Source: an uncultured Methanosarcinales archaeon (lineage in GTDB: Archaea > Nanobdellota > Nanobdellia > Woesearchaeales > CAYVYK01). From it: a stretch of DNA of 64,000 nt. The notes below the pieces were generated by a model. The model did not search any database and was not told the origin of the DNA. It saw nothing but the letters and a program-made list of their open reading frames with translations. Shown piece after piece: positions 2,106 to 60,592 of the stretch. The translations under genes were made by a program, and so were the position numbers. The stretch is from positions 1 through 64,000 of the forward strand of contig CAYVYK010000005.1 in NCBI GenBank assembly GCA_964455675.1, given 5' to 3'. Every line of letters starts with the position of its first letter. Position 1 is the first letter of the stretch.

Positions 2106-3731
2106 GTGGAGGATACGGTGATGGATAAGGAAGGGCTTTCGCAAGACCAGCTGCTATTCGCGTTCGGTTTCATCTCTGATGATGAAGCGAGAAAAGAGTA
2201 TGGTGGCAAGTCTAATGAGGAGCGTCTGCAACTTGTTAAGGAAGGTAAGGTTACGAAGGAACAGTGCCAGAAGTGGGCGAGCAATCATGAGATTGAGGAA
2301 GCGAAGAACCAGCTGATGAAGACTGGCTTTCCTGAGCCCGGATGGTTTCACTACATTGTGTATGAGTCGTATCAGGCTTCTCTTGAGGAGTCCTATTACT
2401 GGTTGTTGAACTATCTGCGCTACGACGCTGGTTTTCCTCAGGTGTTCAAGGTAACTGACGTCTTTGCGGCGAGCGAGCACTCTTCGTTTTTTGGTTCGTC
2501 CGAGCAGCGGGTCGGGATTCAGCAGGACCGCATCTCAAACTTTTTGGCGACAATAGGTAAGCTGACGAAGGAAGTGTTCCAGATCGTGCGCGAACTTCGC
2601 ATTCTTGATGAACGCTTGGATATGTATAAGGCAAGTAATGACGCGAATCGTAAGGACCGTGAGAGCGCCGAGATTTCCCTCAAAGGAACCTGGATAGACT
2701 TGGTTGAGGGTGGTACGAAGAACGCTGGATCGGTGTTTGGTCTTGCGCGCGAGCTGCAGTTCACAACCCTTCCAGACCTCTTTTTTGCGATACATCCTCC
2801 AAAGCCCGAGGACGTTGATGAGTATGTTGACAAGCAGGATGAGTTTAATCGCAAAGTTCGTGAGGTTTTGAAGCGTAAGCTTCGCTCCTACTTGCATTGG
2901 AAGGAGCGCACCTTGCAGGAGATTTCCTGGCGGCGTAACTTCACATTGAAGTATCTGCGTCAGCACTACCTCGTTATCCGTCTCTACATGCAGTGGGTGC
3001 GCCCGTATATGAGGCACCTAAAGAGGTTAAATTCGAATCTCGAGCGCATGGACCGTGCTGATCTTGTCTCCGCGTTTGAGAGCAGCATGATGGAAGTTGA
3101 GATGCTCGCGCGTCAAATGCCAAAGAACAACAAGGAAGTGTACGCGGTCGAGATTATCAATATGCGTTTCCGCACCCGTCCGAGCATGAGCTATGTGCAG
3201 GAAGGAGGGGGCTATCAGCGCGGCCCCATCCATGTTGGTGAAGTTCGTATCCAGTATCGCACGTATGCGTGGGATGAGAAAGAAATCACGAACTACTTGA
3301 AGATGCGGGAGATAGAGGATTGGGAGCTCATGCTTGGTATTGATGAGACAATCTTGCAGTCCATGACCGAGCTTGGCGGTGACCTGCGTAAATACCTTGA
3401 GGAAGCAGGTGAAGTGTTTGAGAATAAGGTAAAAGCCGAGACTCCGCGAAAGCCCGAGGGCATGCTATCTCCCTTCACGGGGGTCCTGAAAGGTTTTGGT
3501 GAAATCTTTACCGCATTTGGCGGTAATGAAAAGAAGGAAGAGAAAAAGGAAGGAGCAAAGGATGAAACTCTCATGGGGCGTATGATGTCATCTGTTTCAA
3601 AGGAGAGCAAATCAAAGATGAACAAGTACGCAAAGGACCAGGAGCGCGGTCGAGCAAAGGAGCAGGCGATGTTCATGGCCTGGCTTTCCTACAAGAATTA
3701 CAAGGCCGGTCATCGCATGCTGACATGGTAA
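2106..3731 (+). CDS. Hypothetical protein (541 aa)
   Basis: Long ORF with host-like codon usage; no catalytic motif recognised. Confidence 0.8.
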   Translation: MEDTVMDKEGLSQDQLLFAFGFISDDEARKEYGGKSNEERLQLVKEGKVTKEQCQKWASNHEIEEAKNQLMKTGFPEPGWFHYIVYESYQASLEESYYWLLNYLRYDAGFPQVFKVTDVFAASEHSSFFGSSEQRVGIQQDRISNFLATIGKLTKEVFQIVRELRILDERLDMYKASNDANRKDRESAEISLKGTWIDLVEGGTKNAGSVFGLARELQFTTLPDLFFAIHPPKPEDVDEYVDKQDEFNRKVREVLKRKLRSYLHWKERTLQEISWRRNFTLKYLRQHYLVIRLYMQWVRPYMRHLKRLNSNLERMDRADLVSAFESSMMEVEMLARQMPKNNKEVYAVEIINMRFRTRPSMSYVQEGGGYQRGPIHVGEVRIQYRTYAWDEKEITNYLKMREIEDWELMLGIDETILQSMTELGGDLRKYLEEAGEVFENKVKAETPRKPEGMLSPFTGVLKGFGEIFTAFGGNEKKEEKKEGAKDETLMGRMMSSVSKESKSKMNKYAKDQERGRAKEQAMFMAWLSYKNYKAGHRMLTW

Positions 3732-4240
3732 AGAAAAAAATTCGAAAAGTTCTGGAAATACCCGACGAAAAGAAGTACGACGTCCATATCCCAAAGTCTC
3801 TCCCGAAATCTATTGTTAGTGTGAAGTATATTCCACAGGAGAAGAAGACTCCAAAGGTTGAACCAACAAAGCTGGAAAAGCTCTCCGAGCCAGTGTCCGT
3901 CGAGGAGCCCGATCGCTCTGGTCGTCCGCTTGAGGATACTGTTGCCGCGGAGCCCGGGCCGCATGTTTCAGAGGCGGAAGTGAGGGCGTATGAATCCCAT
4001 CTTGCTGCAAAACCCATGCCCGAGCTTTACAACAGGATTCGAAATCTCTACGAGGACATCAAGGAGTCCGGCACGATGGACGCGGATCAGTCCGACCAAC
4101 TTTACCACTTGCGGAATGCGATCCAGCAGAAGGAAAAGGATATCGAACGCGGAAGATACGCAGCTTCGCAGGCGGTGGCTAAGCAGTTGAGTCTCGCGGA
4201 AAAGATTGTTGATGACCTTCTTGGTTCCTATCGTCGATAA
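3725..4240 (+). CDS. Hypothetical protein
   Basis: 171-aa ORF overlapping the upstream stop (translational coupling). Confidence 0.7.
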   Translation: MVKKKIRKVLEIPDEKKYDVHIPKSLPKSIVSVKYIPQEKKTPKVEPTKLEKLSEPVSVEEPDRSGRPLEDTVAAEPGPHVSEAEVRAYESHLAAKPMPELYNRIRNLYEDIKESGTMDADQSDQLYHLRNAIQQKEKDIERGRYAASQAVAKQLSLAEKIVDDLLGSYRR

Positions 4241-4296
4241 TATTCCAGCTGTTTCCTGCTCTCTTGTTGCATCAGTGGTATTTTTTGTTTATTTGA

Positions 4297-4497
4297 GGTT
4301 AACACTGGCAATAAGCGATTTCTTCAGAGCTGGGCGAAGCCTCGGTAACCAAAAGCTGCGACCATCGAAGAAACCTAGATGAGAGGGCAGTGCAAGGAGC
4401 GAACCGCTTAAAATATGGTAAACACCCTGAACGCAGTGATCGCACTGCATGGCTCCTCGAAAAAAGAAGCGTATCTTTCATATACTACCTGTTAGAT
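4297..4497 (+). repeat. attC-like element A
   Basis: Starts GGTTAACACTGGCAATA and ends TACTACCTGTTAGAT (GTTRRRY); imperfectly complementary ends; internal hairpins. Confidence 0.55.
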
Positions 4498-4601
4498 TCT
4501 TTTTTACGAAGTAAAAACTTCGAGCGAAGCGAGAAAGTATGACGGAAGAAAAAATTGGGTGTAGAAGACAATTTATATATTTATTATAATAAAGTTCTCT
4601 G

Positions 4602-4847
4602 ATGAAAAAATTATTCACAATTTTTCTGGTTATTTTAGTGATTTTAATAGCTGGCTGTAACTCAAAATGTGGTCCGAACCAATATGAAGGTTGCGACAGG
4701 TCTTGTAAGACAGATATGGATTGTAAAGTAGATATATGTGCTGGCTGTGTGAACGTAGGTGTAAATATGGATTATTCGCACGGACCAATTGATTGTATAT
4801 CTCCCCTATCATGTAAATGTGTTAATAATAAATGTTCACCAGGATAG
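4602..4847 (+). CDS. Small Cys-rich lipoprotein (cassette 1)
   Basis: MKKLF + hydrophobic stretch + IAGC lipobox; many further Cys; TATA TTTATATA at 4572-4579. Confidence 0.75.
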   Translation: MKKLFTIFLVILVILIAGCNSKCGPNQYEGCDRSCKTDMDCKVDICAGCVNVGVNMDYSHGPIDCISPLSCKCVNNKCSPG

Positions 4848-4860
4848 CCCAATTTTTTCT

Positions 4861-5010
4861 AAGTAACATCGGAATTTAACGAAGCTGAATTTCCCACGAG
4901 TCTCGGCAACCCCCAAGAATCGTGCTGGAAATTCAATTGGGTAGAGCAGGGGAAATCGCTTGGCGATTTGGGCGACAACGACCCTGCGAACCGTTAAATT
5001 CCTGTTAATA
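4861..5010 (+). repeat. attC-like element B (copy 1 of 142-bp repeat)
   Basis: TAACATCGGAATTTAACG...CGTTAAATTCCTGTTA terminal inverted repeat with a bulge; 4867-5008 matches 9901-10042 with 3 differences. Confidence 0.8.
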
Positions 5011-5183
5011 TTCGTCTGACCAAAGGGAAGACCTGATTTTTAGTGCAACGATGCAAAAGGCAAAAAATCAGAGTCGTCGTGTGTACCATATAGTCGTGGG
5101 GGTTGCCGAAGTTCCGTAATAATCATCCAATAGTGACAACAAAAGAGAAAGCTTTAAATAGCTGCTCTTTCTATCTTTAATCT

Positions 5184-5270
5184 ATGGTTGCAGAATCAAA
5201 GATTCAAACTTTGGAAGTTAAGAAGGATTTTGCTAGTTCTAACTCGATATGTTCTCATCATCATCTGTAA
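5184..5270 (+). CDS. 28-aa peptide MVAESKIQTLEVKKDFASSNSICSHHHL (leader or precursor peptide candidate)
   Basis: ATG about 24 nt after TATA TTTAAATA (5153-5160), consistent with a leaderless transcript; followed by hairpin AATCTGG/CCAGATT. Confidence 0.5.
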   Translation: MVAESKIQTLEVKKDFASSNSICSHHHL

Positions 5271-5407
5271 ATCTGGCTTATTTTCCAGATTGTGAATTAC
5301 TTTCAGTTTAGTCATAATTCTGGTTTCTAAGTTCAGATCATCATTGTTTCAGATTAATTTATTTTCTAAAAAATGGCTGACATCCAAAACTGTCGGAGGA
5401 AAAGAAA

Positions 5408-5479
5408 ATGGAAAAACAAACAAGTACCAAACAACTAGAGGCTAAGGCGCAAGAAAGCGCTGGTTGTATTCATTGCTAA
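5408..5479 (+). CDS. 23-aa peptide MEKQTSTKQLEAKAQESAGCIHC (precursor peptide candidate)
   Basis: GGAGGA Shine-Dalgarno directly upstream; ends in CxxC; precedes the ATP-grasp-like gene. Confidence 0.5.
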   Translation: MEKQTSTKQLEAKAQESAGCIHC

Positions 5480-5555
5480 TAGTGATAACTCTTTTCAAGT
5501 ATTATCTACTATAGCAAGACTAAGCGGTGGAACCTATGATGAGCTACCAGATATT

Positions 5556-6851
5556 GTGTCAGACTGGCGAAGATTCAGAGGGCCATTTTATAGACTGAAT
5601 GATCCACTAAGTTCTAAAGAAGAGACCTCAATTGCAGAAAGATACCTGAGTCAGATGTTACTTTGTGGAAAACCTGATTCAATAGATCTAAGGAGATGGT
5701 TTATTAAGTGTTTAAGTAATGACCAAACCGCATTTACTGGATTTACTTCTTTAGTTGACGTTGTTGAGTCCGAAGCATTAGGATATGATGGCACTATCAG
5801 ATTGTTACCCTCTGCGTCTTTTGTTGAACCATTTGCTGTTGAAAGATTGGACATTGCTGGACGTGAAAAACTGTTCGGGATTAAAGAAAGATTGGACAAA
5901 CTAGACTCAACTAAGATAGAAGAAGTGAACGTGTTGGTGGAAGAGGCGGAAAGACTTTGTCCCATTGATGGGGGTAGAAAAAAAGGGAAAAGCCCGATCT
6001 TTTTTTATGGTGTGTCTGATAAACCATTCCAACTGCCCAAATCAGTGTATCAGAGGTTAGAAGAAGCCGCAAAAACCGCCTACGTCGCATTATGCTTGGC
6101 TACAGGAGATAATGGTAGAAATATCTTCACAGGTTCTGTTGATTTCATGCTTTGTGATAACGATATTTATCTTATTGATATAGGGACTCCTGCGGTGGGT
6201 TATGTTGCCGATATACTCGCAACTAGCCAAGCATTAGGAAGAAAACCTTCTGTGGGAATAGAAAAGATTGTTTCAACACTCAACGGAAAGGTTACAATTC
6301 CTCAAAGTACTCTATCAAGAGAATTAGGATTCTTTAAACAAGAGAAAGAATATTTAGTTTCTGAACTTAGAAAGAACGGTATTCTTGTTGAAGAAGTATA
6401 TGACGAAGTAAATGAGGCTATAGTTGATGGAAAATCATTGCCGAAAAGAGAATTTGACTACCTAAGCAGAAATCAACCTCTAAGAAATAGGATTCTTACG
6501 GGCGTAAACGGAAATTTGTCTGCATATGGTGTCAAAATACCCAAAGGAGCCATACTGCAACCTGATGATTTTGTATTGGCGAGATTTTATGAAACTTCCA
6601 GACTTGGAGAAGAAGATTATGGACTATTAATAAAGAAAAAGGTATTCTTCAAAGAATATGAAACTGGGAGTGGATATTTCAAACCATTGGTAACTCCAAT
6701 CTGGGGAAGAGAGATAATGGCAGACAATAAAAGGAGTAATCTTTTTGAGCAATTTGTACCTAGCCTCTTAGACATTGATGTGAAAGGAGACAGAAGAGGA
6801 AAGCGATGCTATGAAATCAGGATGTATTTTGTTGGGGGTGAAATCAAATGA
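5556..6851 (+). CDS. Circularly permuted ATP-grasp / glutathione-synthetase-like peptide ligase (putative)
   Basis: SVDFML..IYLIDIGTP and FEQFVP..YEIRMYFVGG resemble ATP-grasp motifs in permuted order; frame is open from 5439 so the start is uncertain. Confidence 0.55.
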   Translation: MSDWRRFRGPFYRLNDPLSSKEETSIAERYLSQMLLCGKPDSIDLRRWFIKCLSNDQTAFTGFTSLVDVVESEALGYDGTIRLLPSASFVEPFAVERLDIAGREKLFGIKERLDKLDSTKIEEVNVLVEEAERLCPIDGGRKKGKSPIFFYGVSDKPFQLPKSVYQRLEEAAKTAYVALCLATGDNGRNIFTGSVDFMLCDNDIYLIDIGTPAVGYVADILATSQALGRKPSVGIEKIVSTLNGKVTIPQSTLSRELGFFKQEKEYLVSELRKNGILVEEVYDEVNEAIVDGKSLPKREFDYLSRNQPLRNRILTGVNGNLSAYGVKIPKGAILQPDDFVLARFYETSRLGEEDYGLLIKKKVFFKEYETGSGYFKPLVTPIWGREIMADNKRSNLFEQFVPSLLDIDVKGDRRGKRCYEIRMYFVGGEIK

Positions 6852-7381
6852 TAAAAGGAATTATTTTTGATTTTAACAGAACGCTGTACATTCCAGAGCT
6901 TCAACAAATACCGGAAGAGACTATTGAATTGCTCAAGAATCTTAGAAAGTCTGGCCTTTCTTTGGCTTTGATCAGCATTAAGGAAGCTCACAGAGATACT
7001 TTAATCGAATCATATGATCTTTCTTCTATTTTTTCTGTTACTAAAATTGTGAGAGAGAAGGATACCAACATTTTCAAAGAAACACTTAGTCTTCTTGGAT
7101 GTCAGCCCAATGAGATTATTGTTGTGGGAGACAGAATAAAATCAGAGATAAAGCTTGCTAATCAGTTGGGAATCAAGACGATTTGGTATAAAAAGGGTAA
7201 GTTTAGCAATGAATTACCTACTGAAAAAATTGAGTTTCCAACTTGGACAATTAGTGATATATCAAAAGTGGAAGAAATAATCAAAGACGTAAACACTAGC
7301 AAATCTTTAGTAGACAGAGCAATCCAATCGAATCCAGAAATCTTTGATTTTGGACTATCTGTCTCGAAGGGACCAAGGTAG
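6848..7381 (+). CDS. HAD-superfamily hydrolase
   Basis: IIFDFNRTLY motif I; VVGDRIKSEI motif IV; overlaps the upstream stop (ATGA). Confidence 0.85.
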   Translation: MIKGIIFDFNRTLYIPELQQIPEETIELLKNLRKSGLSLALISIKEAHRDTLIESYDLSSIFSVTKIVREKDTNIFKETLSLLGCQPNEIIVVGDRIKSEIKLANQLGIKTIWYKKGKFSNELPTEKIEFPTWTISDISKVEEIIKDVNTSKSLVDRAIQSNPEIFDFGLSVSKGPR

Positions 7382-7416
7382 CAACCCCGTTATTATTTTA
7401 CACGACGATTGAGCAT

Positions 7417-7430
7417 AATTCCTGTTATGC
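7417..7430 (+). repeat. Right arm of attC-like element C
   Basis: AATTCCTGTTATGC; AATTCCTGTTA is identical to the B and D right arms; left arm degenerate (possibly AAACACTAGCAA near 7291). Confidence 0.5.
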
Positions 7431-7608
7431 GCCCCGACGAGCAAAGCGAGGAGAACGCAGTGGGGTCGAGCATTAATTCCGTAGGAAAAAAGCGGAGAAG
7501 TTAAATTTAATTTTCATGTCAATTCTGCGAGGCAGAAAACATCTTAGGGGAATTCTCTCTCAATCTCGAAGAGCCATCAAGATAAACGTTTAGACCAACA
7601 CTTTCTCA

Positions 7609-8568
7609 TTATGGCATGAATAAAAATTTATGTTCTTTATACCATAATAGATGGTGATATTTTTTTATGGACTTCCCAAAAAGGTTTCTAATTTCGTCCA
7701 AGACTTTCCTAAATTCCTCATAACTTTGGACTTCCATCTCGACTTCTAGGTCGTTTTCGCTTATTGTTTCATAAGCATAGATTATATTTGGATGTTGATG
7801 AAGAAAACTCAACATACTTTTTTTTATGTTTAAATCATCTAATTGTATCTCGATTTTATACCAATAATATCCTATTGTTTCTAAGTCAAGAATTACACGG
7901 AAATCAACTATTATTCCGTTTTCTATCATCTTTTTGATTCTATAATTAACGTTGGTAATGCTGATTCCTGTTTTTTCAGAAATTGAAACTGATGTCATCC
8001 TAGCATTAGGGGTAATCAATCTTAAAATCTGGATATCTTTATCATCAAACTCCACTTTTTCAGGAAAAAACATAACTTTAATTTTTTCATCTCCTCTTTT
8101 CTTATCAGAAAGATATGTTCTTTTGTATATATAGAATTTTGAGTATATGGCAATGTTCAAATCAAAGACGAATTTTCCAAATCTTTTTATTAAATCCTCT
8201 TTAATATCAAAAAACTCATATGTATTCTTGACCCAACATGCAAGACCTAAATCTCTAAATCCATCTATACTATTAACCCACCAGAATTGAGGGTGCTTTT
8301 TATAATATTCAATTACTTGATTTTCTTCTTCGGGTGAATCTTTTTGAAATTTAATAAAAAATCTGCAATTCAGATAACCTAACTTACTTACATCTATAAG
8401 CGTTTGATATCCTCTGATTATGCCTCTTTTTTCAAGCTGTTTTATTCTATATTGGACAACTTCTCTGCTTAGTTTTACTTTTTTGCCTATTTGTTTATAG
8501 CTTTGCCTACTATCTGAATCCAGTTGATAAAGAATCTGCCTGTCTTTCTTATCCAGTTTGTAGACCAT
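7609..8568 (-). CDS. Tandem (double) Lrp/AsnC-family transcriptional regulator
   Basis: Two HTH-RAM units: LDKKDRQILYQLDSDSRQSY..IGKKV and DDKDIQILRLITPNARMT; divergent from the radical SAM gene. Confidence 0.9.
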   Translation of the reverse strand: MVYKLDKKDRQILYQLDSDSRQSYKQIGKKVKLSREVVQYRIKQLEKRGIIRGYQTLIDVSKLGYLNCRFFIKFQKDSPEEENQVIEYYKKHPQFWWVNSIDGFRDLGLACWVKNTYEFFDIKEDLIKRFGKFVFDLNIAIYSKFYIYKRTYLSDKKRGDEKIKVMFFPEKVEFDDKDIQILRLITPNARMTSVSISEKTGISITNVNYRIKKMIENGIIVDFRVILDLETIGYYWYKIEIQLDDLNIKKSMLSFLHQHPNIIYAYETISENDLEVEMEVQSYEEFRKVLDEIRNLFGKSIKKYHHLLWYKEHKFLFMP

Positions 8569-8677
8569 AAATTAACTATATTGTCCATATTTATAAGTAT
8601 TATGGTTAAAGTGTAAAAATTATGATAAAAACTTTTATTAACATAGTCCTGTTAGTTTTCACTAAGGAGTTAATAAA

Positions 8678-9844
8678 ATGGAAAAAACAACCCTAGAAAT
8701 ACCAAAAAAATTTCAAAATGGTTTTCCTAGAGATTATCAGAACACTTTGCCTAATTGGGGATTTTTTTCAAGAGAAGATTTTGAAGCTAATCGAGGAAAG
8801 CTTTTGCTTTTAGATATAGACTTAGATCGGTACTGCTCCTTGCATTGTCCTGATTGTTTTAGGCAAGACAGTGCAGTAGATGATGCGGAGGATAAGAGAG
8901 ATTTAAGTTTTGGGGAATTGATTAAAATCATTGAGGACGGGAAAAAACTCGGGTTAAAATATGTTAAGATTTGTGGTGTTGGCGAACCAACGGAAAGCAG
9001 GAAATTCTTGCCGTTTGTTGAAATAATGACTAATATGAGTATAGGTACCGCAGTCTTTACAAAAGGGCAAGGATTAGGTAATGATGATGTTGCAAAAAGA
9101 TATCATGGGCGATATGGAATAAACACCGCTCAGGAATTAGCAGAGAGAATGTATCAACTGGATGTTAGTTTCATGTTGGGTTTTCATTCTTTTGATCCTG
9201 CAATTCAAGATCATGTTGTCAGAACACCAAACTATGCACAAATAAGAAATACTGCTTTAGAAAATTTAGTCAATGCTGGATTTAATAATTCGAATCCTAC
9301 ACGACTAGCTTTTTGTAATGCACCAGTTAGGAGCTCAACAGCAGATGATGCTTTCCCAATTTATATTTGGGCAAGAGAAAGGAATATTTATCCTGTAACA
9401 GCAGTATTAATGACGAGCGGGAAACAAATAGACCCTGAATTTCTAAAACAAAATGATTTAACACATGAACAAAAAGTTGAACTATGGACAAATATCTATT
9501 CATGGAATATTGAACATGGTTTTCAAAAATTAGACGAAATCGAAGCAGATGGAATTTCGTGTTTGCCTGGAGGTCATCCGTGTAATCAATTAAGAGCCGG
9601 ATTATACATAACTATGAAAGGCAATGTTGTAGGTTGTCCTGGTTACATTGAAAGCCAAGGAAATGTAAGGAAACAGAGTCTTGCAGAAATTTGGGAGCAA
9701 AGCAAAACAAGGCAAATTGCTGGAGATAGATTTAATACTGGCTGTCCTCCAAAAGAAGGCATAACAATTCCAACGACGCTTTATGCAGAAGTTTTATCCA
9801 ATTTGCAGAGCAAGTATCGTTCAAGAGAACGTGGGGCTCAATAA
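8678..9844 (+). CDS. Radical SAM enzyme with SPASM/twitch-like C-terminus
   Basis: CSLHCPDC (CxxxCxxC), GVGEPT, then C..GNVVGCP..GNVRKQSLAEIW..C; GGAG RBS. Confidence 0.9.
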   Translation: MEKTTLEIPKKFQNGFPRDYQNTLPNWGFFSREDFEANRGKLLLLDIDLDRYCSLHCPDCFRQDSAVDDAEDKRDLSFGELIKIIEDGKKLGLKYVKICGVGEPTESRKFLPFVEIMTNMSIGTAVFTKGQGLGNDDVAKRYHGRYGINTAQELAERMYQLDVSFMLGFHSFDPAIQDHVVRTPNYAQIRNTALENLVNAGFNNSNPTRLAFCNAPVRSSTADDAFPIYIWARERNIYPVTAVLMTSGKQIDPEFLKQNDLTHEQKVELWTNIYSWNIEHGFQKLDEIEADGISCLPGGHPCNQLRAGLYITMKGNVVGCPGYIESQGNVRKQSLAEIWEQSKTRQIAGDRFNTGCPPKEGITIPTTLYAEVLSNLQSKYRSRERGAQ

Positions 9845-9894
9845 AAAAATAAGAGAGAATTCCCGTTTTGTTCTAGAAAATTGAATTTAATTGC

Positions 9895-10044
9895 ATATAG
9901 CATCGGAATTTAACGAAGCTGAATTTCCCACGAGTCTCGGCAACCCCCAAGAATCGTGCTGGAAATTCAATTGGGTAGAGCAGGGGAAATCGCTTGGCGA
10001 TTTAGGTGACACCGACCCTGCGAACCGTTAAATTCCTGTTAAGT
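9895..10044 (+). repeat. attC-like element D (copy 2 of 142-bp repeat)
   Basis: Near-identical to element B; ends GTTAAGT (GTTRRRY). Confidence 0.8.
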
Positions 10045-10140
10045 ACGTTTCCAATACGCAAGTGTGGGAAACCTGCGTCCGCGGAGTAAAATTTCTATTT
10101 CCCCGATAGTTTAATAAACATTTTGGTATATGGTAATATT

Positions 10141-10296
10141 ATGGATAGAGATAAAATACAATTTTTTGCGGGATTGATACTTGCGCTTGGATCTGCAGTT
10201 TGGACTTTCTTCGGTTCGTTTCATCCAAGCCATACAATAATCTTAATTGTGGGATTAGGAGCAATAGTAACATCAAAATATAGATTATTGAAGTAA
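10141..10296 (+). CDS. 51-aa two-helix membrane peptide (cassette 4)
   Basis: Hand translation MDRDKIQFFAGLILALGSAVWTFFGSFHPSHTIILIVGLGAIVTSKYRLLK; TATA-like TTTAATAAA at 10110. Confidence 0.65.
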   Translation: MDRDKIQFFAGLILALGSAVWTFFGSFHPSHTIILIVGLGAIVTSKYRLLK

Positions 10297-10337
10297 GTAA
10301 TTATTTTCTACAATCCAGGAAATGGAAATTTTATTGA

Positions 10338-10483
10338 ACTTAACAACGGCATTAACAGAAGTTTTTTGCCCTCGTGAGCCCGAACCTCGTGAAACAGAGG
10401 TGCGAGAGCGAACAGTGATGACAAAACATTTGGGAAAGCGAAGTGCAACGATCTTTCCAGTATCTCCGCAAGAGAAAGTCAGT
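10338..10483 (+). repeat. attC-like element E (left arm present, right arm not found)
   Basis: ACTTAAC (RYYYAAC) + AACGG; exact complement of GTTAAGT that opens the same cassette; followed by short hairpins. Confidence 0.55.
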
Positions 10484-11341
10484 CTAGTCCATCTGCCCGA
10501 GCACTGATGCATTGATCTGTTTGGCCATGCCCATGTTCTTTATCACGGTGAGCTTGATAACGGACTTCTTATTGACGATTCTTGAGAGCTCTGTGATGTC
10601 AAGCTTCTCGAGTGTGGAATTCTTTCGGAAGAATACCTCGAGCGCTTGCACGATATCTGGTGGATACTGTGTCTGCACGATGAGATCTCCGTACGTTCCG
10701 ACGTAATACTTCCGGTCAAACGATGAGAGTGACGGATCGATCTCCATCTTCACGCCAATGTGGTGGTAGAACCTCTTAATATTTCGGTCAAGTGCAGTAC
10801 TGCCTATGGAGAGGATATATGACTTTATGCCTTTTTTCTTGAGTTTTCCCATGATCTGGCGTTCCCGGTCTGGATGCAGCAGGACTTCCCACGCGTGTGC
10901 TGCCTGGTACACATTGACATTGGGATCTCCTTTCTTGAGGTGTTTGTACCAATCGTCGATGAGGTCCTGCCAGAATACCATCATGTCATTGAGCGATTTG
11001 AATGTGAAGACCGCTATCTCGTTTCCAATAGCATCCTCTCGAGTAGGCTTGCTTTTCTGCTCATAGATCTCGGTGTAGAGGGTATCGACTTTCTGTTTGA
11101 GTTCTCGCACGTATTCACGGCTTATTGAGAATTCCTTGCCGGTTTGGTTAATGACTCCTGCAAAGGAAAGCTCGAGAAGCGCTTTGCGAACCGCCTGAAA
11201 CGTGATGGACTTCCCGTACCGCTTCTTGATAATATTCGTGAGATCAATAATCTTGAGTGGGTACTCCTTTGAGAGGATGGTGAACACCATGTCCTTTGCG
11301 CTATCGGTGCGATCAAGTGGTAATGATACTCTAATGGGCAT
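10484..11341 (-). CDS. Winged-helix transcriptional regulator-like protein
   Basis: N-terminal wHTH (ITFQAVRKALLEL...GVI) plus a C-terminal domain. Confidence 0.7.
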   Translation of the reverse strand: MPIRVSLPLDRTDSAKDMVFTILSKEYPLKIIDLTNIIKKRYGKSITFQAVRKALLELSFAGVINQTGKEFSISREYVRELKQKVDTLYTEIYEQKSKPTREDAIGNEIAVFTFKSLNDMMVFWQDLIDDWYKHLKKGDPNVNVYQAAHAWEVLLHPDRERQIMGKLKKKGIKSYILSIGSTALDRNIKRFYHHIGVKMEIDPSLSSFDRKYYVGTYGDLIVQTQYPPDIVQALEVFFRKNSTLEKLDITELSRIVNKKSVIKLTVIKNMGMAKQINASVLGQMD

Positions 11342-11449
11342 TAAACCAATAAGTACATAAGATTATTTAAACCTAACGGTTTAATTCTCATTGAACCAAA
11401 CATGCATAAAACTTTGCATTAACCACTAGTGAATAACGAAGGAGGAATC

Positions 11450-11860
11450 ATGATGGAAAACGATTCATTAGTGGATTACGCTGATATGTATCACAAAGAA
11501 AGGGTAAGGAATCTCAAATGCAAGGCTCTCGGAGCGATAGCGCTCGGCCTGCTCATAGAGACAGGTGTAGCTGTGTGTTCTATCGCGTATGAGAAAGGTT
11601 ACCAGAGTGGACGAGAGGACGCTGCGCGTGCAGTGTATGCACATGAGTACGTTCCTGTTGCCAATGGCGCTGCATCTCACATTTTCTTCGAAGGTTATGA
11701 TGACCGCCCAGAGATCATGCACGCCAAGGCTCTTCGCGATGTTGCGCTCGGTTATAGCAGAACCAGCGAGGAACAGGAACGACATCGTGCTTTCGGATAC
11801 CTCCCTCCGGGCATTGTCCACCCCGCAGAGATTGAAAGGGCAAGACACGATCAGCGCTAA
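11450..11860 (+). CDS. Hypothetical membrane-anchored protein
   Basis: GGAGG RBS before ATGATG; one hydrophobic helix. Confidence 0.6.
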   Translation: MMENDSLVDYADMYHKERVRNLKCKALGAIALGLLIETGVAVCSIAYEKGYQSGREDAARAVYAHEYVPVANGAASHIFFEGYDDRPEIMHAKALRDVALGYSRTSEEQERHRAFGYLPPGIVHPAEIERARHDQR

Positions 11861-11888
11861 AGCAAAATAACGAAATGCACACAGCAAA

Positions 11889-12085
11889 GCCATCATTCAA
11901 GCGAAGCTTGAAGATGGCGTCCGAGACAAGGCCGACCGGAGGGAAGCCGATCGTCCTACGATAATATTTTAATGCCTTTGTGCACCACATCTTTGACCGA
12001 CGGGAGGCCGATCGTCCCACGATATTATTATGATATTAGATTTTTATTTCGCCTTGACGACGGGAGGCCGACCCTTCCACAATAA
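11889..12085. repeat. Three degenerate copies of a REP-like repeat (..GACGGGAGGCCGATCGTCC(T/C)ACGATA), about 60-bp period
   Basis: Copies near 11930, 11993 and 12054; related sequences at 13549-13564 and 31014-31082. Confidence 0.7.
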
Positions 12086-12191
12086 TCCAGAGCAAAGGGA
12101 TAGTAAACTGGATTGCGGAGGGTTATCGATATACTGGTGAGTTCATAGGAATTGAGTTACATTTATATAAAATTGGGTTATTATCGAATTA

Positions 12192-13484
12192 ATGAGAATA
12201 AGTTGTATTATTCCTGCATTCAATGAAGAACCAACCATCATTAATGTAATCAGGACTGTTAAAAAAGTTAAGGTAATCGATGAAATCATTGTTGTTGATG
12301 ATGGATCTACAGACAATACTTTTAGGAATGCCAAATTAGAATCCGTTAAAGTTATTAGACATACCAAAAACCGGGGAAAGGGGGCAGCAATTAAAACCGG
12401 AGTTACGCATTCTTCAGGTGAAATCATACTGTTTCTTGATGCTGATCTTTACTCCATTTCACCGAAAAAAATTGCATCAATTCTTCAACCGATAGAAAAT
12501 GGTGAGGCTGACTTCGTTAAGACTTCATTTTCCAGGGCAAGAGGCAGAGTGACTGAGCTTGTCGTGAAACCATTATTCAGAGTAATTTTTCCATTCATAA
12601 CTTTTTATCAACCCTTAAGCGGGCAATTTGCACTGAAGAGGGATTTATTCAAGGACTTGAAAATTGATGATAAGTGGGGCGTTGATATTCAAATACTGCT
12701 CCAACTAGTAAAAAAAGGCGTACGAATAGCTGAAGTAGACATCGGAAAACTAAGACACAAAAAGCAGCCCTTGGAAAATTTGACTATTATGTCCGAGCAG
12801 GTTATCAAGACAATCTTATCTGAACTGGGTATTATTGCGAACAAGCACAAACTGGTGATATTCGATTTTGACAAGACTCTCATTCGAGAAAGCAGTATCG
12901 AAGTAGTTGCCAAAGAGTTTGGATTTCTGAAACAACTAAAATCGCTAAGAGCTGATTATGGAAAGGGGAAAATTAAGGATTATAACATAACTTTGGAACT
13001 CGCAAATCTGATTAAAGGGAAAACTCAGAATGATTTTGAAAAGGTTTTTCAGAATATTAATCTTAGGAGAACAGCAAAAGGTACTATTGAAAGACTTAAA
13101 AAAAGACAATATCATGTCGGCATCATTTCTGTTGCTTTTTCCCCGATAATATACTATTTTGCTAATATACTTGGAATTGATAAAAGGAATATTGTATGCC
13201 CGATTTTAGTAACGGATAGTGATGGAAGGTACACGGGAGAAGTTATCGCAAAGACAAAATATAATTCAAAATGCTGTGATATGATCATCTGCAAGGCTGA
13301 GGCTACTAAAGAATTAATGAAAAAATTAAATGTTAAAGCAGAAGAATGCATTGCACTTGGTGATGGAAAATCAGATGCGTGTTTGTTTCGTGCTTGCGGT
13401 CTTTCTCTGGCGTACAAACCCGTAACGCCTATAGGCGATGTTAGAATATTGAATCTCGCAGAAGTCTTAATATATGCAGAATAA
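12192..13484 (+). CDS. Glucosyl/mannosyl-3-phosphoglycerate synthase-like GT2 fused to a phosphoserine-phosphatase-like HAD domain
   Basis: IIPAFNEE, VVDDGSTD, FLDAD, GRVTELVVKP, QPLSGQFA, WGVDI (GpgS-type motifs); C-terminal FDFDKTL..LGDGKSD. Confidence 0.85.
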   Translation: MRISCIIPAFNEEPTIINVIRTVKKVKVIDEIIVVDDGSTDNTFRNAKLESVKVIRHTKNRGKGAAIKTGVTHSSGEIILFLDADLYSISPKKIASILQPIENGEADFVKTSFSRARGRVTELVVKPLFRVIFPFITFYQPLSGQFALKRDLFKDLKIDDKWGVDIQILLQLVKKGVRIAEVDIGKLRHKKQPLENLTIMSEQVIKTILSELGIIANKHKLVIFDFDKTLIRESSIEVVAKEFGFLKQLKSLRADYGKGKIKDYNITLELANLIKGKTQNDFEKVFQNINLRRTAKGTIERLKKRQYHVGIISVAFSPIIYYFANILGIDKRNIVCPILVTDSDGRYTGEVIAKTKYNSKCCDMIICKAEATKELMKKLNVKAEECIALGDGKSDACLFRACGLSLAYKPVTPIGDVRILNLAEVLIYAE

Positions 13485-13644
13485 TTGATGAAAACTCTCC
13501 TTTGATAAATACACTGGAAAATTTTTTGCTGGTGGACAAGTCATATATCCGACCGTCCTACGATGTAATTTCTTTATATATTTTTCATAAAAAGTCATAA
13601 TTTTTTTCCAAACCTTTATTAATCTCCCCGTCTAAAAAGAAGGT

Positions 13645-45158: not shown

Positions 45159-47087
45159 ATGGAGCGCGCAATTACAACCGAGGAGCTCTGTAGGCGTTTA
45201 AAGCCGATTTTTGGGAAGAAAATAGACCAATTGTATCTGAAGTATACTCTCACGGAGGGTCGCCGTGAGAAAGAAGAGATCGCGCAGTTTATTGCGGTCC
45301 TCTATGAGAAACACCTGGAGACAACGCTTCTCGGCGAGAAGATACTGCTCGTTCCGCCAAAGGAGAACGATGTGTCCGGAACCTACCCTCTTGGTATGGT
45401 AACATACGCTGATAAAGAATTGTATCCGTTCTGTATGCGCGACCAGGACTTGGTCCGTCACATCTGCATCACAGGTATGTCCGGTTCTGGTAAGACAAAT
45501 CTTGCTTTCCTCATCATCTCTCATCTTATCAAGAACAATATGCCGTTGATCATTTTTGACTGGAAAAAGAGCTTCCGGCCTTTGCTCAATCTTGACAAGA
45601 AGATGATGATCTTCACGATCGGTAAGAAGGAGACATCAAATATGTTCCGGGTGAATATCAACCGTCCTCCGCCAGGTGTCGATCCGACGGAGTGGATCGG
45701 GATACTCTGTGACCTGGTGAGTGAGTGTTTCTACACGAGTTATGGTGTTCATAAGCTCCTTAAGGAAAGTCTCGATCAGGCGTTTAAGGATTTTGGCGTG
45801 TACAAGGGGTCTGATAATTATCCCAATTGGTACCATATCAAAACTCGCCTTGAAGATCGTGCTGCTGAGATGCAGAAAGGTCGTTCGCATCGTGAGGCAG
45901 AGTGGATGGAGAGTGCTCTGAGAATTGCGCACTCGCTTACGTTTGGTAATTTCGGAGATGTGGTGAACACAAAGAAAGGGACGTACGTTGATGTTGAGGA
46001 CTTATTTAATATGAGGACGATCTTTGAGCTTGCCTCACTTGATACGTCGGAGAAGAAGTTTTTTTGTGAGTATGTCTTAACGTATATCTATAAATTGAAA
46101 AAAGCAAAGGTGAATCAGAAGCAGCCGTTCAACTTCTCTATAATGATTGATGAAGCTCATAACATCCTGCTTAAAGAAAAGCCTGTATTCATGCGTGAGA
46201 CGGTAACAGAGATGATTTATCGTGAGATTCGTGAGTATGGGATAGGCCTCATCTGCCTTGATCAGCATGTATCCAAGCTTTCCGAGACTGTTGTGGGGAA
46301 TAGCGCTACGTCGATAGCATTCCAGCAGATGCTACCTCAGGATGTTGAGACCGTGTCCATGGTTATGATGATCAAGGATTACAAGCAATACTTCACGATG
46401 CTTCCAGTTGGTGTTGCAATTGTCAAGCTGGCCGAGCGGTATTTCAATCCGTTCCTCATTAAGGTACCGCTTGCTGAATTCAAGAAGACAGAATACACGG
46501 ATGAGCAGATCGTTGAGCGTATGAATAAGCTCGCTCGTGATTTGATCCGTCAAAAATCGTTCAAGGAATCACTCAAGGACGACAATTTGAAGAAAGTTGT
46601 TGAAGGACTGAATCGGCTTGAGCATCTCCGTACCGAAGGCCGAGGTGACGAGAACCCTAAGGAAATGACTCCTGAAGAATACAATAGCCTCGTCGAATAT
46701 CTCTCGAGAAATGAGAATGTTCTCGAATTTCTGAAACTCGCACAGGGGAAACGGATGGGAACGACAGAATTATATACCAGTCTTGGATTGTCCACGAGGA
46801 AGTGTGATGAGCTAAAAACCGACCTCCAGTATAGGGGTTTAATTAAGGTGGAGGAGGAGCGCACTCCATCAGGACTGCGCAAGTTCATCGTCATAACTCC
46901 CAAGGGCAGGGAGATTTGCGAATACGTCACAAACCTAAAATCGGATTCCTTCAATGCGTCAAAAGGTGATGAGCCAGACGCTCACGACCCCGAGGTTTCC
47001 GAAAGAGGATCCACAAAACCATCATTGGCGAAGTCACAAAAAAGACAGTCAACCTCACATTCATCAAATAAACCATCCATAAAATAG
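45159..47087 (+). CDS. HerA/VirD4-like (DUF87) P-loop ATPase with C-terminal winged helix
   Basis: RHICITGMSGSGKT, IFDWK, IMIDEAH, REIREYG, LDQ; C-terminal GLIKVEE..ITPKG. Confidence 0.88.
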   Translation: MERAITTEELCRRLKPIFGKKIDQLYLKYTLTEGRREKEEIAQFIAVLYEKHLETTLLGEKILLVPPKENDVSGTYPLGMVTYADKELYPFCMRDQDLVRHICITGMSGSGKTNLAFLIISHLIKNNMPLIIFDWKKSFRPLLNLDKKMMIFTIGKKETSNMFRVNINRPPPGVDPTEWIGILCDLVSECFYTSYGVHKLLKESLDQAFKDFGVYKGSDNYPNWYHIKTRLEDRAAEMQKGRSHREAEWMESALRIAHSLTFGNFGDVVNTKKGTYVDVEDLFNMRTIFELASLDTSEKKFFCEYVLTYIYKLKKAKVNQKQPFNFSIMIDEAHNILLKEKPVFMRETVTEMIYREIREYGIGLICLDQHVSKLSETVVGNSATSIAFQQMLPQDVETVSMVMMIKDYKQYFTMLPVGVAIVKLAERYFNPFLIKVPLAEFKKTEYTDEQIVERMNKLARDLIRQKSFKESLKDDNLKKVVEGLNRLEHLRTEGRGDENPKEMTPEEYNSLVEYLSRNENVLEFLKLAQGKRMGTTELYTSLGLSTRKCDELKTDLQYRGLIKVEEERTPSGLRKFIVITPKGREICEYVTNLKSDSFNASKGDEPDAHDPEVSERGSTKPSLAKSQKRQSTSHSSNKPSIK

Positions 47088-59900: not shown

Positions 59901-59989
59901 ATCCATCACGTTAAGAATCAGAACTCCTCAACGGGTGCTAATACGAACTTTTAAATACTTAATATGTGTGCATTTTTAGGGTTAGGCAA

Positions 59990-60592
59990 ATGGCTTCCAG
60001 ACGCCCAAAAAGGCTACCAAAGTACCTCACAAGAGATGAGTTGCAAAGGCTCTTAAACGCTGCGGGAAGACCGATCGATCGCTTAATTATCCTCTTCCTG
60101 TACAACACAGGAGCTCGTGTCTCAGAGCTCGTTAATTTTCGAATTGAAGACATTGACTTCGAAAACCAGTCAATAACTATTTTTCGTGGAAAGGGAGCCA
60201 AAGACCGTACTGTGAACGTTTCAGAAGAGTTCCTAAATGAGCTTAGACGGCATATAAAAGACCGAAGAGAAGGTATTTTATTCAATAGTAACTGGAAACG
60301 AGCTTTCACGCAGAGAGCAATACAGAAAAAGATAAAAAACCTTGCGAGAATAGCGAAACTACCCTATCTGCATAAAATAACGCCACACACACTTAGGCAC
60401 ACCCATGCAGTGCATTCCCTTCAAGCTGGAGTCAATATAATCTCCATAAAGAAGCATCTGGGCCATGAAAACCTGAAAACAACAATGGTTTACACTGAAA
60501 TCAGTGATGAGGTTGTTAAACGTGATTATGAAGTCCATAAACCATTCAAACTTAAGAGAGAATCGGATCAACAAACGCTAGATTCCATTTAA
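59990..60592 (+). CDS. Xer-family tyrosine recombinase (catalytic domain only)
   Basis: LPKYL, YNTGARVSE, GKGAKDR, HTLRH, LGH, TMVY: complete R-K-H-R-H-Y set. Confidence 0.92.
   Translation: MASRRPKRLPKYLTRDELQRLLNAAGRPIDRLIILFLYNTGARVSELVNFRIEDIDFENQSITIFRGKGAKDRTVNVSEEFLNELRRHIKDRREGILFNSNWKRAFTQRAIQKKIKNLARIAKLPYLHKITPHTLRHTHAVHSLQAGVNIISIKKHLGHENLKTTMVYTEISDEVVKRDYEVHKPFKLKRESDQQTLDSI

Follow-up and report, generated by a model that had tools for sequence, protein, structure and literature searches.

The described systems closest to the locus reported here are integrons and several elements that depend on Xer recombinases. IMEX such as the CTX phage have single-stranded genomes that fold to a hairpin mimicking a dif site, and these phage genomes integrate at one chromosomal dif site of bacteria. 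Xer sites, as given in PMC2958812, consist of imperfect inverted arms that enclose a 6-nt centre, and dif appears in PMC2958812 and PMC8371274 as a single chromosomal site for dimer resolution that does not lie beside xerA. The Acinetobacter pdif modules described in PMC7399989 carry resistance genes between XerC/XerD sites on bacterial plasmids. For integrons, PMC9668308 describes the integrase IntI, the sites attI and attC, and CALIN arrays, some of the published archaeal CALINs being from Nanoarchaeota and Woesearchaeales.

We analysed a window of 64,000 nucleotides, the whole stretch of DNA under study, from a host genome that is 99% complete and whose FtsZ has its nearest matches among proteins that bear the names Woesearchaeota or Nanoarchaeota. 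An AT-rich island at 4241-10483 (6.2 kb) holds four gene units between recombination-type sites. We think it likely that the four units are mobile gene cassettes and that the array they form belongs to an integron-like, Xer-driven system, a conclusion that draws mostly on evidence from outside the window. This upholds the proposal, made in a sequence-only reading of the DNA, of a cassette system in a DPANN-type host that is related to yet distinct from classical integrons.

Anatomy and insertion of the island

The sites follow the plan ATTGnnnnTAACA, a 2-nt bulge, a palindromic arm, its complementary arm and TGTTA. Sites, 5' modules and genes are as follows, together with a distant recombinase gene.

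4300..4494, forward: site A, the first site; TAACA-CT-GG on the left, CC-TGTTA on the right
4495..4601, forward: cassette 1 leader (5'), with a TATA-like box 30 nt ahead of the ATG, at 4572
4602..4847, forward: ORF1, cassette 1 cargo; 81 residues, Cys-rich, lipoprotein-like N terminus
4864..5007, forward: site B, a full hairpin of TAACA, TC bulge, 11-bp arm, structured middle, complementary arm and TGTTA
5008..5125, forward: postB module, 5' end of cassette 2
5373..6851, forward: ORF2, a Woesearchaeota-specific protein of unknown function
6848..7381, forward: ORF3, a HAD-family phosphatase; 4-nt overlap with ORF2
7408..7431, forward: site C, dif-like, ATTGAGCATAA - TTCCTG - TTATGCG; imperfect inverted arms, 6-nt centre
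7428..7500, forward: postC module, 5' end of cassette 3; at least 5 other genomes conserve it
7609..8568, reverse: ORF4, within cassette 3; a double AsnC/Lrp-type wHTH regulator, 319 residues, ~28% GC
8678..9844, forward: ORF5, cassette 3 cargo; a radical SAM/SPASM-domain protein
9890..10041, forward: site D, a full hairpin; left core mutated to TAGCA and preceded by left arm ATTGCATA
10042..10087, forward: postD module, made of two covarying hairpins, at the 5' end of cassette 4
10141..10296, forward: ORF6, cassette 4 cargo; hydrophobic protein of 51 residues; TATA-like box at 10110
10333..10470, forward: site E, the last site; left arm ATTGAACTTAACA and a family-like inner part
59966..60592, forward: XerA-like gene, the sole tyrosine recombinase gene in the genome

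The positions read earlier for the motifs are correct (TAACAnnGG at 4300, 4864 and 10341, TAGCAnnGG at 9898, and CCTGTTA at 4488, 5001, 7421 and 10035), and the clustering is far above chance. Across the entire 1.717-Mb genome, the forward strand has TAACAnnGG 40 times and CCTGTTA 37 times, so that ~0.14 of each would be expected per 6.2 kb, compared with 3 (and one variant) and 4 seen. GC content is 27–44% in the island and ~46–57% in its flanks, and 27–40% in the cassette cargo compared with 48% genome-wide.

The description of the elements as palindromes with pairing arms applies to B and D, the only sites whose fold spans their full length (-33 to -35 kcal/mol, z -5.7 to -6.3, with 0/200 shuffles equally good); A, C and E are incomplete. 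Pairing in site A, which begins 59 nt past the stop of the host gene 3725-4240, is limited to the ends TAACA/TGTTA and GG/CC, with mismatched inner arms, although its inner part resembles members of the site family (L022). Site C has neither the hairpin insert nor the left hairpin arm, and its pattern occurs once in the whole genome. Site E lacks the right arm and the TGTTA half and adjoins the stop of the convergent gene 10484-11341. As had been noticed, 4867-5008 and 9901-10042 (sites B and D) differ at only 3 of 142 nt.

TATA-like boxes do stand at 4572, 5153 and 10110, the first of which may act as a promoter; the cassettes are not all of single direction, since unit 3 combines the reverse-strand regulator gene with a forward gene. 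Unit 2 also has two genes, a pairing (ORF2 and ORF3) that recurs in another Woesearchaeota genome. The frame of ORF2 is interrupted by a TAG at 5436-5438 (Trp in an 86%-identical homologue) and is open from GTG 5556. ORF1 matched no Pfam family, and NCBIfam gave only weak lipoprotein-signal matches. The 5' modules recur elsewhere: the postB part 5034-5076 has 80–93% identity in at least 9 other genomes, and the ORF4 homologue in G018 likewise lies 3' of a postC-like module. G039 has DNA that matches the ORF6 region. ORF2-ORF3 and ORF4 also have homologues in ordinary contexts that are devoid of such sites.

The suggested search for an empty site succeeded. Homologues of 2106-3731 and 13645-15783 are adjacent in three relatives (G030, G023 and G007); in G030 the block also includes the homologue of 3725-4240, and in G030 and G007 its last two genes are <20 nt apart. 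As 9.4 kb separates these flanking genes in the host genome, the island is an insertion.

The site family in relatives and metagenomes

Whether such elements recur elsewhere had been proposed as a check, and they do. A 594-nt query (site D, postD, ORF6 and site E) found matches in 65 of 200 further genomes from the order, the scoring being limited to two candidates per genome, and an exact 22-mer of postD matched 65 metagenome loci. The proposed integron-like cassette system is common in this Woesearchaeota-type DPANN order; literature searches returned no published description of the site family. Its sites range from 18 to ~195 nt with conserved ends, and the 2-nt bulge and short core-adjacent spacing picked out in the sequence-only reading are indeed conserved across it. 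Relatives of site C are also dif-like (imperfect inverted arms, 6-nt centre). In the helix formed by core and arm, 96% of cells pair (17 sites, 10 genomes), compared with 31–48% in slid controls; both-sided changes occur in 7 of 16 pairs and one-sided changes in none, and the covariation score was reached by 0 of 500 shuffles.

In integrons, the start of a cassette complements the bases ahead of its end in the excised circle, and the earlier reading had extended this rule to the island. Stated for this family, the 5 nt 3' of TGTTA at one site complement the 5 nt 5' of TAACA at the next. Of 25 adjacent pairs from relatives and metagenomes, 19 follow the rule with at least 4 of the 5 bases, compared with 8–14% in controls. 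The relatives contribute 6/8 pairs, compared with 21/258 cross-genome controls and 3/18 own-flank pairs (these two figures take in the sites of the window), and metagenome contigs 13/17 (9 perfect), compared with 357/2,492 controls and 7/51 own-flank pairs. Within the window only cassette 4 clearly obeys (4/5 flank bases between D and E, and 7/7 with the core counted, as GTTAAGT at 10038-10044 and ACTTAAC at 10338-10344 are present as read); cassette 3 is marginal (3/5), and cassettes 1 and 2 do not conform (1/5 each).

Covariation could also be read as the mark of conserved structured RNAs or regulatory elements (terminator or 3'-UTR hairpins, leaders or small RNAs) that have no role in recombination. 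Both the hairpin and postD covary strongly, the elements are co-oriented with most genes, and the non-Watson–Crick pairs of postD place G.T on the top (sense) strand in 24 cases compared with 2, as RNA would give. That bias fits single-stranded DNA as well; the strand favoured in integron attC is the opposite one. The main hairpin has no such bias (5 versus 3). Rfam gave no match at E ≤ 1 other than one chance snoRNA elsewhere. RNA folding does not account for complementarity across more than 0.3–2 kb at cassette ends, and it leaves the dif-like sites, the positional link to XerA-like genes (below) and the empty site in relatives unexplained. We regard this explanation as unlikely, noting that for the post modules RNA and recombination roles are not exclusive.

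It is rather more doubtful that the sites are miniature palindromic transposable elements (MITE- or IS200/IS605-type) scattered between unrelated genes, the 'cassettes' being whatever lies between. Sites B and D do look like a near-identical 142-nt palindromic repeat, and family copies are frequent at contig ends, as multi-copy repeats would be. In the host genome, however, the elements are confined to the array locus, and the genome has no Y1 HUH transposase, which leaves the HUH/Y1 enzyme suggested earlier unsupported. There is no target-site duplication, a site's own flanks matching far less often than those of neighbouring sites in the counts given above. The family combines conserved ends with lengths of 18 to ~190 nt, and conserved post modules come after the right core, 63 of the 65 metagenome copies of postD sitting 15–45 nt 3' of a TGTTA-type core.

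Recombinase genes and a proposed mechanism

As had been reported for the window, IntI is absent: the best match to the integron integrase model TIGR02249 in the host genome scored 75.6 bits against a cut-off of 265, and all 201 genomes of the order fell below the cut-off. The best matches span profile positions 2–184 only and lack the IntI-specific region. This bears on a reading of the island as a classical integron remnant (CALIN) with canonical attC sites, served by an IntI encoded elsewhere or in trans. Such a remnant would match the integron logic seen here (TAAC...GTTA cores around a variable middle, short cassettes that mostly point the same way, and complementarity in the circle), and archaeal precedents exist. 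The family is present in 65/200 genomes, however, compared with 75/6,718 archaeal genomes identified by canonical attC models; its spacing is unlike that of nine published archaeal attCs, with a one-sided 2-nt bulge and no extrahelical bases in the arm, and the cassettes have their own promoter-like boxes. We consider a CALIN improbable.

The proposed check for a linked tyrosine recombinase was borne out in relatives but not in the host itself. The host gene 59966-60592 sits 50 kb away from the array, in an AT-rich island of its own; it lacks ~85 N-terminal residues, with no remnant of them upstream. The five sites of G006 stop 0.6 kb 5' of a 278-residue XerA-like gene on the same strand, and by coordinates sites lie 0.6–8 kb upstream on the same strand in G006, G015, G056, G074, G096, G105 and G133. 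The array-linked recombinase scores as XerA (NF040815, 217 bits against a cut-off of 220).

The link is partial. Among lower-scoring XerA-like genes, family sites were found upstream in 3/11 with at least 12 kb of upstream sequence (the other 8 regions hold no site of this core type) and in 2/9 cut by contig ends, whereas none of the 20 best-scoring XerA genes has a long-type family hairpin upstream; this division by score was chosen after the table had been seen, and related genomes are not independent. In the best-scoring set, a 192-nt match in L088 was judged to be chance, and L080 has two minimal candidates. Approximately 30 of the 150 listed XerA-like matches start <1 kb from a contig edge. 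The element is present in 28/48 genomes with at least two XerA-like matches, 16/49 with one and 3/20 with none; a XerA-like gene lies within 2.5 kb of 1/65 metagenome postD loci.

An error of assembly or binning (a contig that is chimeric, or a repeat that was collapsed or duplicated) is very improbable: B and D break the short-read unitigs and the island differs from the host in composition, but depth in Logan contigs of two runs is even over host and island (8.45, 8.8 and 7.2) and doubles at the 103-nt B/D unitig (16.4 compared with 8.45–8.8 alongside), as expected of two genomic copies, B and D differ at three positions and in the left core, separate contigs of run X1 bridge both host–island junctions (3000-4896 and 10076-11913), and a second run from the same study also covers the stretch. 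The 142-bp duplication is therefore genuine. Excision or circle junctions were not seen in the Logan contigs, the only data searched for them.

For the cassette array that we favour, we propose the following mechanism. Each cassette opens with a structured 5' module (postA, postB, postC or postD) directly 3' of the conserved TGTTA core, carries its own putative promoter and one or two genes, and closes with a recombination site whose left arm reads ATTGnnnnTAA(CA). Most sites have a palindromic hairpin, 0–180 nt long, between this left arm and the next cassette's TGTTA. In a putative excised circle, the cassette's own left and right arms would meet and be complementary. A tyrosine recombinase would swap strands in or adjoining the core, which would make each site in an array a hybrid of adjacent cassettes. 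The most likely enzyme is not an integron integrase but a XerA-family paralogue, whose gene in relatives lies just downstream of such arrays. Folding or extrusion of the hairpin, as in integron attC, is probable, and substrates may be single- or double-stranded. In the host genome, the array was inserted, along with further genes, between a pair of genes that are neighbours in relatives. This array is orphaned and partly decayed; with no recombinase gene alongside, it is probably frozen or mobile only in trans.

Comparison with known systems

The likeness to integrons, as described in PMC9668308, lies in short accessory-gene cassettes that end in imperfect TAAC...GTTA palindromes with a variable middle, in the complementarity of a cassette's first bases to those ahead of its own 3' site, and in the existence of integrase-less arrays. 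As in the attC described in PMC5027507, the extra bases of the bottom strand are on the arm opposite the AAC triplet. Unlike integrons, the genomes here have no IntI. attC has a two-sided unpaired central spacer, whereas the sites here have the one-sided bulge and an arm free of extrahelical bases. The range of site lengths, the dif-like sites within arrays, the conserved structured 5' modules 3' of the crossover core, and the promoter-like boxes and occasional reverse-strand genes within cassettes also set the system apart, and in relatives the recombinase gene follows the array on the same strand, whereas that of integrons is divergent at the array head.

The pdif modules, as PMC7399989 describes them, are likewise small gene modules between Xer-type sites that are thought to be mobile by Xer recombination; they differ in having simple sites in inverted orientation, hairpins and one-directional arrays being no part of that description.

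The array-linked recombinases score as archaeal XerA and site C has the layout of dif. Unlike dif, the sites are many and arrayed, their arms are swapped and the centre of most contains an inserted hairpin, and many of the genomes have a second XerA-like paralogue. As in IMEX, a folded hairpin with an imperfect centre would offer a Xer-type site to a host-type Xer enzyme, but here the elements are small, non-replicative gene cassettes stacked in archaeal arrays.

The cassette array in the window

The host is archaeal, with a full-length archaeal SSU rRNA (1421 bits), and its genome (99% complete, 48% GC, 25 contigs) encodes an FtsZ that is 70–78% identical to proteins that their sources assign to Candidatus Woesearchaeota or Nanoarchaeota. 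Four cassettes lie in an AT-rich island of the window, bounded by five recombination-site-like elements (sites A–E) and carrying six cargo genes (ORF1–ORF6).

Features of the array
4241–10483: island with sites A–E and cassettes 1–4; 27–44% GC, against ~46–57% in the flanks
4867–5008: site B
7408–7431: site C
9901–10042: site D
10042–10087: postD, the structured module after the TGTTA core of site D
ORF1: 81 aa, Cys-rich, lipoprotein-like
ORF2: no protein family; 431 aa when read from GTG
ORF3: HAD phosphatase
ORF4, reverse strand: double AsnC/Lrp wHTH regulator
ORF5: radical SAM/SPASM protein
ORF6: 51 aa, hydrophobic

The motifs of the sequence-only reading were all found where it had placed them: TAACAnnGG at 4300, 4864 and 10341, with the variant TAGCAnnGG at 9898; CCTGTTA at 4488, 5001, 7421 and 10035; and GTTAAGT and ACTTAAC at 10038 and 10338, respectively. 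Sites B and D are identical at all but 3 of 142 nt. On the + strand of the entire 1.717-Mb genome, TAACAnnGG occurs 40 times and CCTGTTA 37 times, so that ~0.14 of each would be expected per 6.2 kb, and the combined left and right pattern occurs genome-wide at this locus and as four unrelated chance pairs only. Sites A, B and D have both core halves (the left core of D is mutated), site C has the right half only and no left hairpin arm, and site E has the left core and no right half. End to end, sites B and D fold on either strand (−32.7 to −34.8 kcal/mol; z of −5.7 to −6.3), and none of 200 shuffles equalled this folding energy; in the same type of analysis, the pairing of site A is limited to its outermost ends. 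The cassettes had been described as single-direction units with their own TATA boxes. TATA-like boxes are indeed present at 4572, 5153 and 10110, and those 30–31 nt 5′ of the ORF1 and ORF6 ATGs are putative promoters; one cassette, however, contains a reverse-strand gene.

Sites A and E could also be read as the att-type direct repeats of a single integrated element; we rejected this, because only their first ~25 nt are common to both and these are the left end of the site family. Between ORF4 and ORF5, 24 nt before the ORF5 start, lies the element TAACA-TAGTCC-TGTTA (8639–8654), which may be an extra minimal core that splits cassette 3; its flanks break the complementarity rule described below.

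An assembly artefact could in principle account for the B/D duplication. We examined Logan contigs from two runs of one sludge-metagenome study, in which the unitigs break at sites B and D. The 103-nt unitig shared by B and D has a depth of 16.4, compared with 8.45–8.8 alongside, and separate contigs cross from host DNA into the island at both borders. The doubled depth and the bridging contigs establish that the duplication and both junctions are real. Excision joints and circle junctions were absent from the Logan contigs, which cannot reveal rare forms, and the postD 22-mer had no match in a viral contig collection, giving no sign of a viral carrier there. One contig of run X1 matches the window from 4278 (site A) onwards and has a different sequence to the left; together with a depth of up to 14.7 in that bin (compared with 8.45), this indicates that site A or cassette 1 also occurs elsewhere in the community.

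Homologues of ORF2 in Woesearchaeota and Nanoarchaeota are 440–492 aa long. Here, an in-frame TAG (5436–5438), at a position occupied by Trp in an 86%-identical protein, separates the original ATG (5373) from the remaining frame, which opens at GTG 5556. The ORF2–ORF3 pair recurs in JAGVZN010000010.1 (75.5% DNA identity) and an ORF4 homologue in G004, another genome of the order (67% amino-acid identity), both in contexts without family sites; such homologues neither support nor refute cassette transfer. In JAGVZN010000010.1 (L070:6700–6800), which comes from a different Woesearchaeota genome, the pair lies right after a tRNA-like sequence containing TAACATCGG and precedes a histidyl-tRNA-synthetase-like gene.

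Insertion and decay of the array

A search of relatives for an empty site, which the sequence-only reading had proposed, was successful. In three genomes from three other families (G030, G023 and G007), the homologue of the 2106–3731 gene lies directly before the homologue of the 13645–15783 gene, with a homologue of 3725–4240 between the two in G030. The gene before the 13645 homologue in G007 was missed by tblastn and resembles 3725–4240 by sequence reading; in G030 and G007, the last two genes of the empty locus are less than 20 nt apart. In the window, the genes that are adjacent in these genomes are separated by 9.4 kb, which holds the array, a convergent gene (10484–11341), a gene for a 143-aa protein, a repeat field and an AT-rich GT2-HAD gene. 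The same flanking genes enclose 7.3 kb of ordinary genes and no family sites in G015; of two further loci, one is on a contig that ends too early and the other has no 13645 homologue nearby.

The AT-rich GT2-HAD gene is preceded by three tandem units of ~61 nt (11880–12090), each with a GC-rich box ahead of an AT-rich, TATA-like tail, and one more copy (13547–13580) precedes gene 13645. This repeat yields 26 BLAST pieces, including the query, at ~20 places in the genome, with a unitig depth of up to 94 compared with 7–8 nearby; it looks like a shared promoter or operator box rather than a recombination site.

The sole tyrosine recombinase gene of the genome (59966–60592) lies 50 kb from the array in a separate AT-rich island. 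It is XerA-like, matching positions 86–263 of the 263 of profile NF040815 with 183 bits (cut-off, 220), and lacks the N-terminal domain; tblastn with five full-length relatives detected no remnant of the N terminus upstream. The array itself is worn: the left core of D reads TAGCA, the right arm and core of E are lost, the arms of A are unpaired and ORF2 carries a stop. We conclude that the window array is an orphaned copy in partial decay that was inserted between two conserved genes.

The second AT-rich island (57400–61350), which holds the truncated XerA-like gene, also contains two ORFs with faint coiled-coil-type matches only (58250–58993 and 59069–59605), a TTCCCA repeat field (~57900–58210) and, close to each border, a copy of CCCCTGTT (at 57483 and 61334). 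This island could represent an element that integrated here or a recombinase platform in decay. Elsewhere in the window, 47000–50000 has a GC content of 55–62% in this 48% GC genome.

A widespread family of sites

Within the host genome, pieces of the sites are confined to this one locus. The expectation that the elements recur elsewhere was borne out in other genomes: B/D and post-B, post-C and post-D pieces are found among the 30 nearest genomes, all from other families of the same order, often two or three per 2 kb and often at contig ends. A 594-nt query spanning D to E matched 65 of 200 other genomes of the order (E ≤ 1e-4; two candidates scored per genome). This tally includes the unpublished genome G131, and those for XerA-like genes, IntI and element carriage likewise include unpublished G131 and/or G111; no claim depends on either alone. 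The sites share one layout: the left arm ATTGnnnnTAACA leads, through a 2-nt bulge, into an 11-nt arm; next come a modular middle that varies greatly in length, the complement of that arm and TGTTA, and one of a few conserved types of post module follows. Minimal versions exist (for example, TAACA-TC-GGG/CCC-TGTTA), as do simple, hairpin-free versions of the form ATTGnnnnTAA-TTCC-TGTTA; site C is one of the latter, and this pattern occurs once in the whole host genome. One contig (L151, from ERZ889078; 2392–4954) has six family sites in 2.6 kb, with three inter-site gaps of 94 nt that would be near-empty cassettes comprising little beyond site and module.

Among 17 aligned sites from 10 genomes, all 17 have TAAC(A) and (T)GTTA with little or no variation, and 96% of cells in the core-plus-arm helix are paired. 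Both sides have changed in 7 of its 16 pairs and one side alone in none; none of 500 shuffles reached the covariation score, and slid registers pair at 31–48%. As judged from this covariation, the site structure is under selection. The conserved bulge beside TAACA that had been noted in the window is one-sided, and reads TC in 26 of 42 candidates; the 11-bp arm after it pairs without extra bases. The postD module forms two hairpins (24 copies, 95.6% of cells paired), with both-sided change in 8 of 15 pairs. Its non-Watson–Crick cells on the sense strand are G·T rather than A·C (24 versus 2), which indicates folding of either RNA or the top DNA strand; no such bias is seen in the main hairpin (5 versus 3).

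Passage of cassettes through a circle, with the crossover in the core, would make the bases just after the TGTTA of one site complementary to those just before the TAACA of the next. Complementarity would thus be expected between neighbouring sites and not between the flanks of the same site. We counted matching positions out of 5, with a cut at ≥4/5, in relatives and in metagenome contigs collected with the postD 22-mer; 63 of 65 metagenome postD copies sit 15–45 nt past a TGTTA-type core.

Flank pairs scoring at least 4/5
Relatives: neighbours 6/8 (four at 5/5); own flanks 3/18; cross-genome control 21/258 (own flanks and control pooled from relatives' sites plus the five window sites)
Metagenome contigs: neighbours 13/17 (nine at 5/5); own flanks 7/51; cross-locus control 357/2492

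These sequence comparisons establish the rule for the family. The window array keeps it only partly: the circular pairing proposed for cassette 4 stands (site D with site E, 4/5), the pair C–D reaches 3/5, and the pairs A–B and B–C reach 1/5 each. Overall, the window locus is a real, non-chance, integron-like cassette array that belongs to a widespread, non-canonical family.

The recombinase and comparison with known systems

The absence of IntI extends beyond the window: the IntI profile TIGR02249 reaches 75.6 bits in this genome (cut-off, 265), and none of 201 genomes of the order scores above that threshold; the best matches span profile positions 2–184 only, without the IntI-specific additional domain that an integron integrase has. 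The genome also has no match to PF01797, the profile of Y1 HUH transposases; the suggestion of an HUH/Y1 enzyme is thus unsupported. A MITE or IS200–IS605-type element, which would be expected to have many dispersed copies and a cognate transposase in the genome or its relatives, is unlikely, as the copies in this genome lie only at this locus.

Candidate enzymes are XerA-like. In G006, a row of five sites stops 0.6 kb before a same-strand gene, the 278-aa product of which scores as an archaeal XerA (NF040815, 217 bits; cut-off, 220). Read from coordinates alone, the same-strand layout, with sites 0.6–8 kb upstream of a XerA-like gene, occurs in G006, G015, G056, G074, G096, G105 and G133. The terminal site directly before array-linked XerA-like genes has the family left arm and a conserved CCTATTAAA-type arm, and no TGTTA. 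The element is present in 28 of 48 genomes with at least two XerA-like matches, compared with 16 of 49 with one match and 3 of 20 with none; relatedness makes these genomes non-independent, and the p-value was therefore disregarded. Approximately 30 of 150 listed XerA-like matches begin less than 1 kb from a contig edge, as would be expected from a repeat array just upstream.

Scanning of upstream regions with a hairpin finder detected no long-type family hairpin before 20 best-scoring XerA genes. Among the lower-scoring XerA-like genes, family sites precede 3 of the 11 that have ≥12 kb of DNA upstream and 2 of the 9 that are cut by a contig end; the two score groups were defined post hoc. One of the best-scoring group (L080) has two minimal candidates upstream. 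A 192-nt hairpin before another best-scoring XerA (L088) was judged to be a chance hit, since neither the ATTG left arm nor the TC bulge is present. Evidence against a tight link between array and XerA comes from the 8 of 11 long upstream regions without a site of the family core type, and from the 65 metagenome postD copies, which have a XerA-like gene within 2.5 kb in no case at E 1e-8 and in one at E 1e-2; the short flanks of these copies do not allow linkage to be assessed. As in the window, matches of XerA-like genes are restricted to the catalytic part of the profile (from ~71–95) in no fewer than 10 further genomes of the order (G151, G056, G084, G072, G023, G118, G086, G009, G050, G006 and G141), some of these genes also having internal stops; such genes may represent a short subfamily or recurrent decay.

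The array family is probably Xer-driven. In the mechanism that we propose, each cassette circle would have a symmetric Xer-type site, in most cases split by a folding hairpin, with a structured module behind it; the circles would be stacked by a dedicated XerA paralogue whose gene lies where the array ends downstream. We see an even chance that Woesearchaeota-type DPANN archaea run their own XerA-paralogue gene-capture system, present in about one-third of sampled genomes, the window array being an orphaned, decaying example. In bacteria, gene capture and shuffling are the textbook role of integrons; to our knowledge, the archaeal integrons reported so far are of the canonical attC/IntI type only, in ~1% of genomes. 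If the proposal is correct, a much commoner system, with a plain Xer-type enzyme acting on non-canonical hairpin sites, would explain the exchange of accessory genes in genome-reduced, host-dependent DPANN archaea, a whole class of cassette arrays would be escaping current integron finders, and a compact new recombinase/site pair would be available for in vitro testing. It would bear on the evolution of integron integrases from Xer recombinases. The system would be either a separate invention of the integron principle or a surviving snapshot of the passage from Xer to IntI. The window locus adds a clear-cut empty site for comparison, an example of an array that lacks its enzyme, and a 5′ module with an unusual bias towards the sense strand.

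Our literature search on integrons, archaea and attC, on XerA/dif and on DPANN cassettes found no description of such arrays, within a coverage that is incomplete and leaves absence unproven; the parts consulted of a 2021 review of archaeal tyrosine recombinases do not mention hairpins, cassettes, DPANN or IMEX. An Rfam scan of 3000–12500 (E up to 1) returned only a sub-threshold snoRNA match outside the elements (3332–3372). According to the portions consulted of a survey with canonical attC models, 75 of 6718 archaeal genomes have integrons or CALINs, with six IntIs; a few Woesearchaeales genomes have 4 attCs each, and nine tested archaeal attCs have ~5 nt between TAAC and the inner arm (PMC9668308). 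Neither TAACATCGG nor CCTGTTA appears in the consulted supplement text of that survey.

Xer sites are described, in the excerpt used, as two ~11-bp arms flanking a 6-bp spacer (PMC2958812). Site C resembles dif in this respect (ATTGAGCATAA-TTCCTG-TTATGCGCC.., with 7–8 of 11 arm positions complementary) and has relatives of the same form, whereas the hairpin-type family sites, as double-stranded DNA, do not fit the dif layout. Classical attC sites, as far as the consulted text describes them, combine R and L boxes with an unpaired central spacer, extrahelical bases in the L box and a variable terminal structure, and favour bottom-strand G·T pairs (PMC5027507). The family differs from this plan in that its spacer is a one-sided 2-nt bulge rather than unpaired on both arms, its arm has no extrahelical bases, its arrays include simple dif-like sites, structured 5′ modules follow the core, its cassettes have their own promoter-like boxes, and there is no IntI. 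A classical array is headed by an attI site and a Pc promoter, with promoterless cassettes behind them; neither an integrase nor an attI lies beside the window array. The family resembles attC in its cores, its variable middle, the circle rule and the extra bases that its bottom strand carries on the arm opposite AAC.
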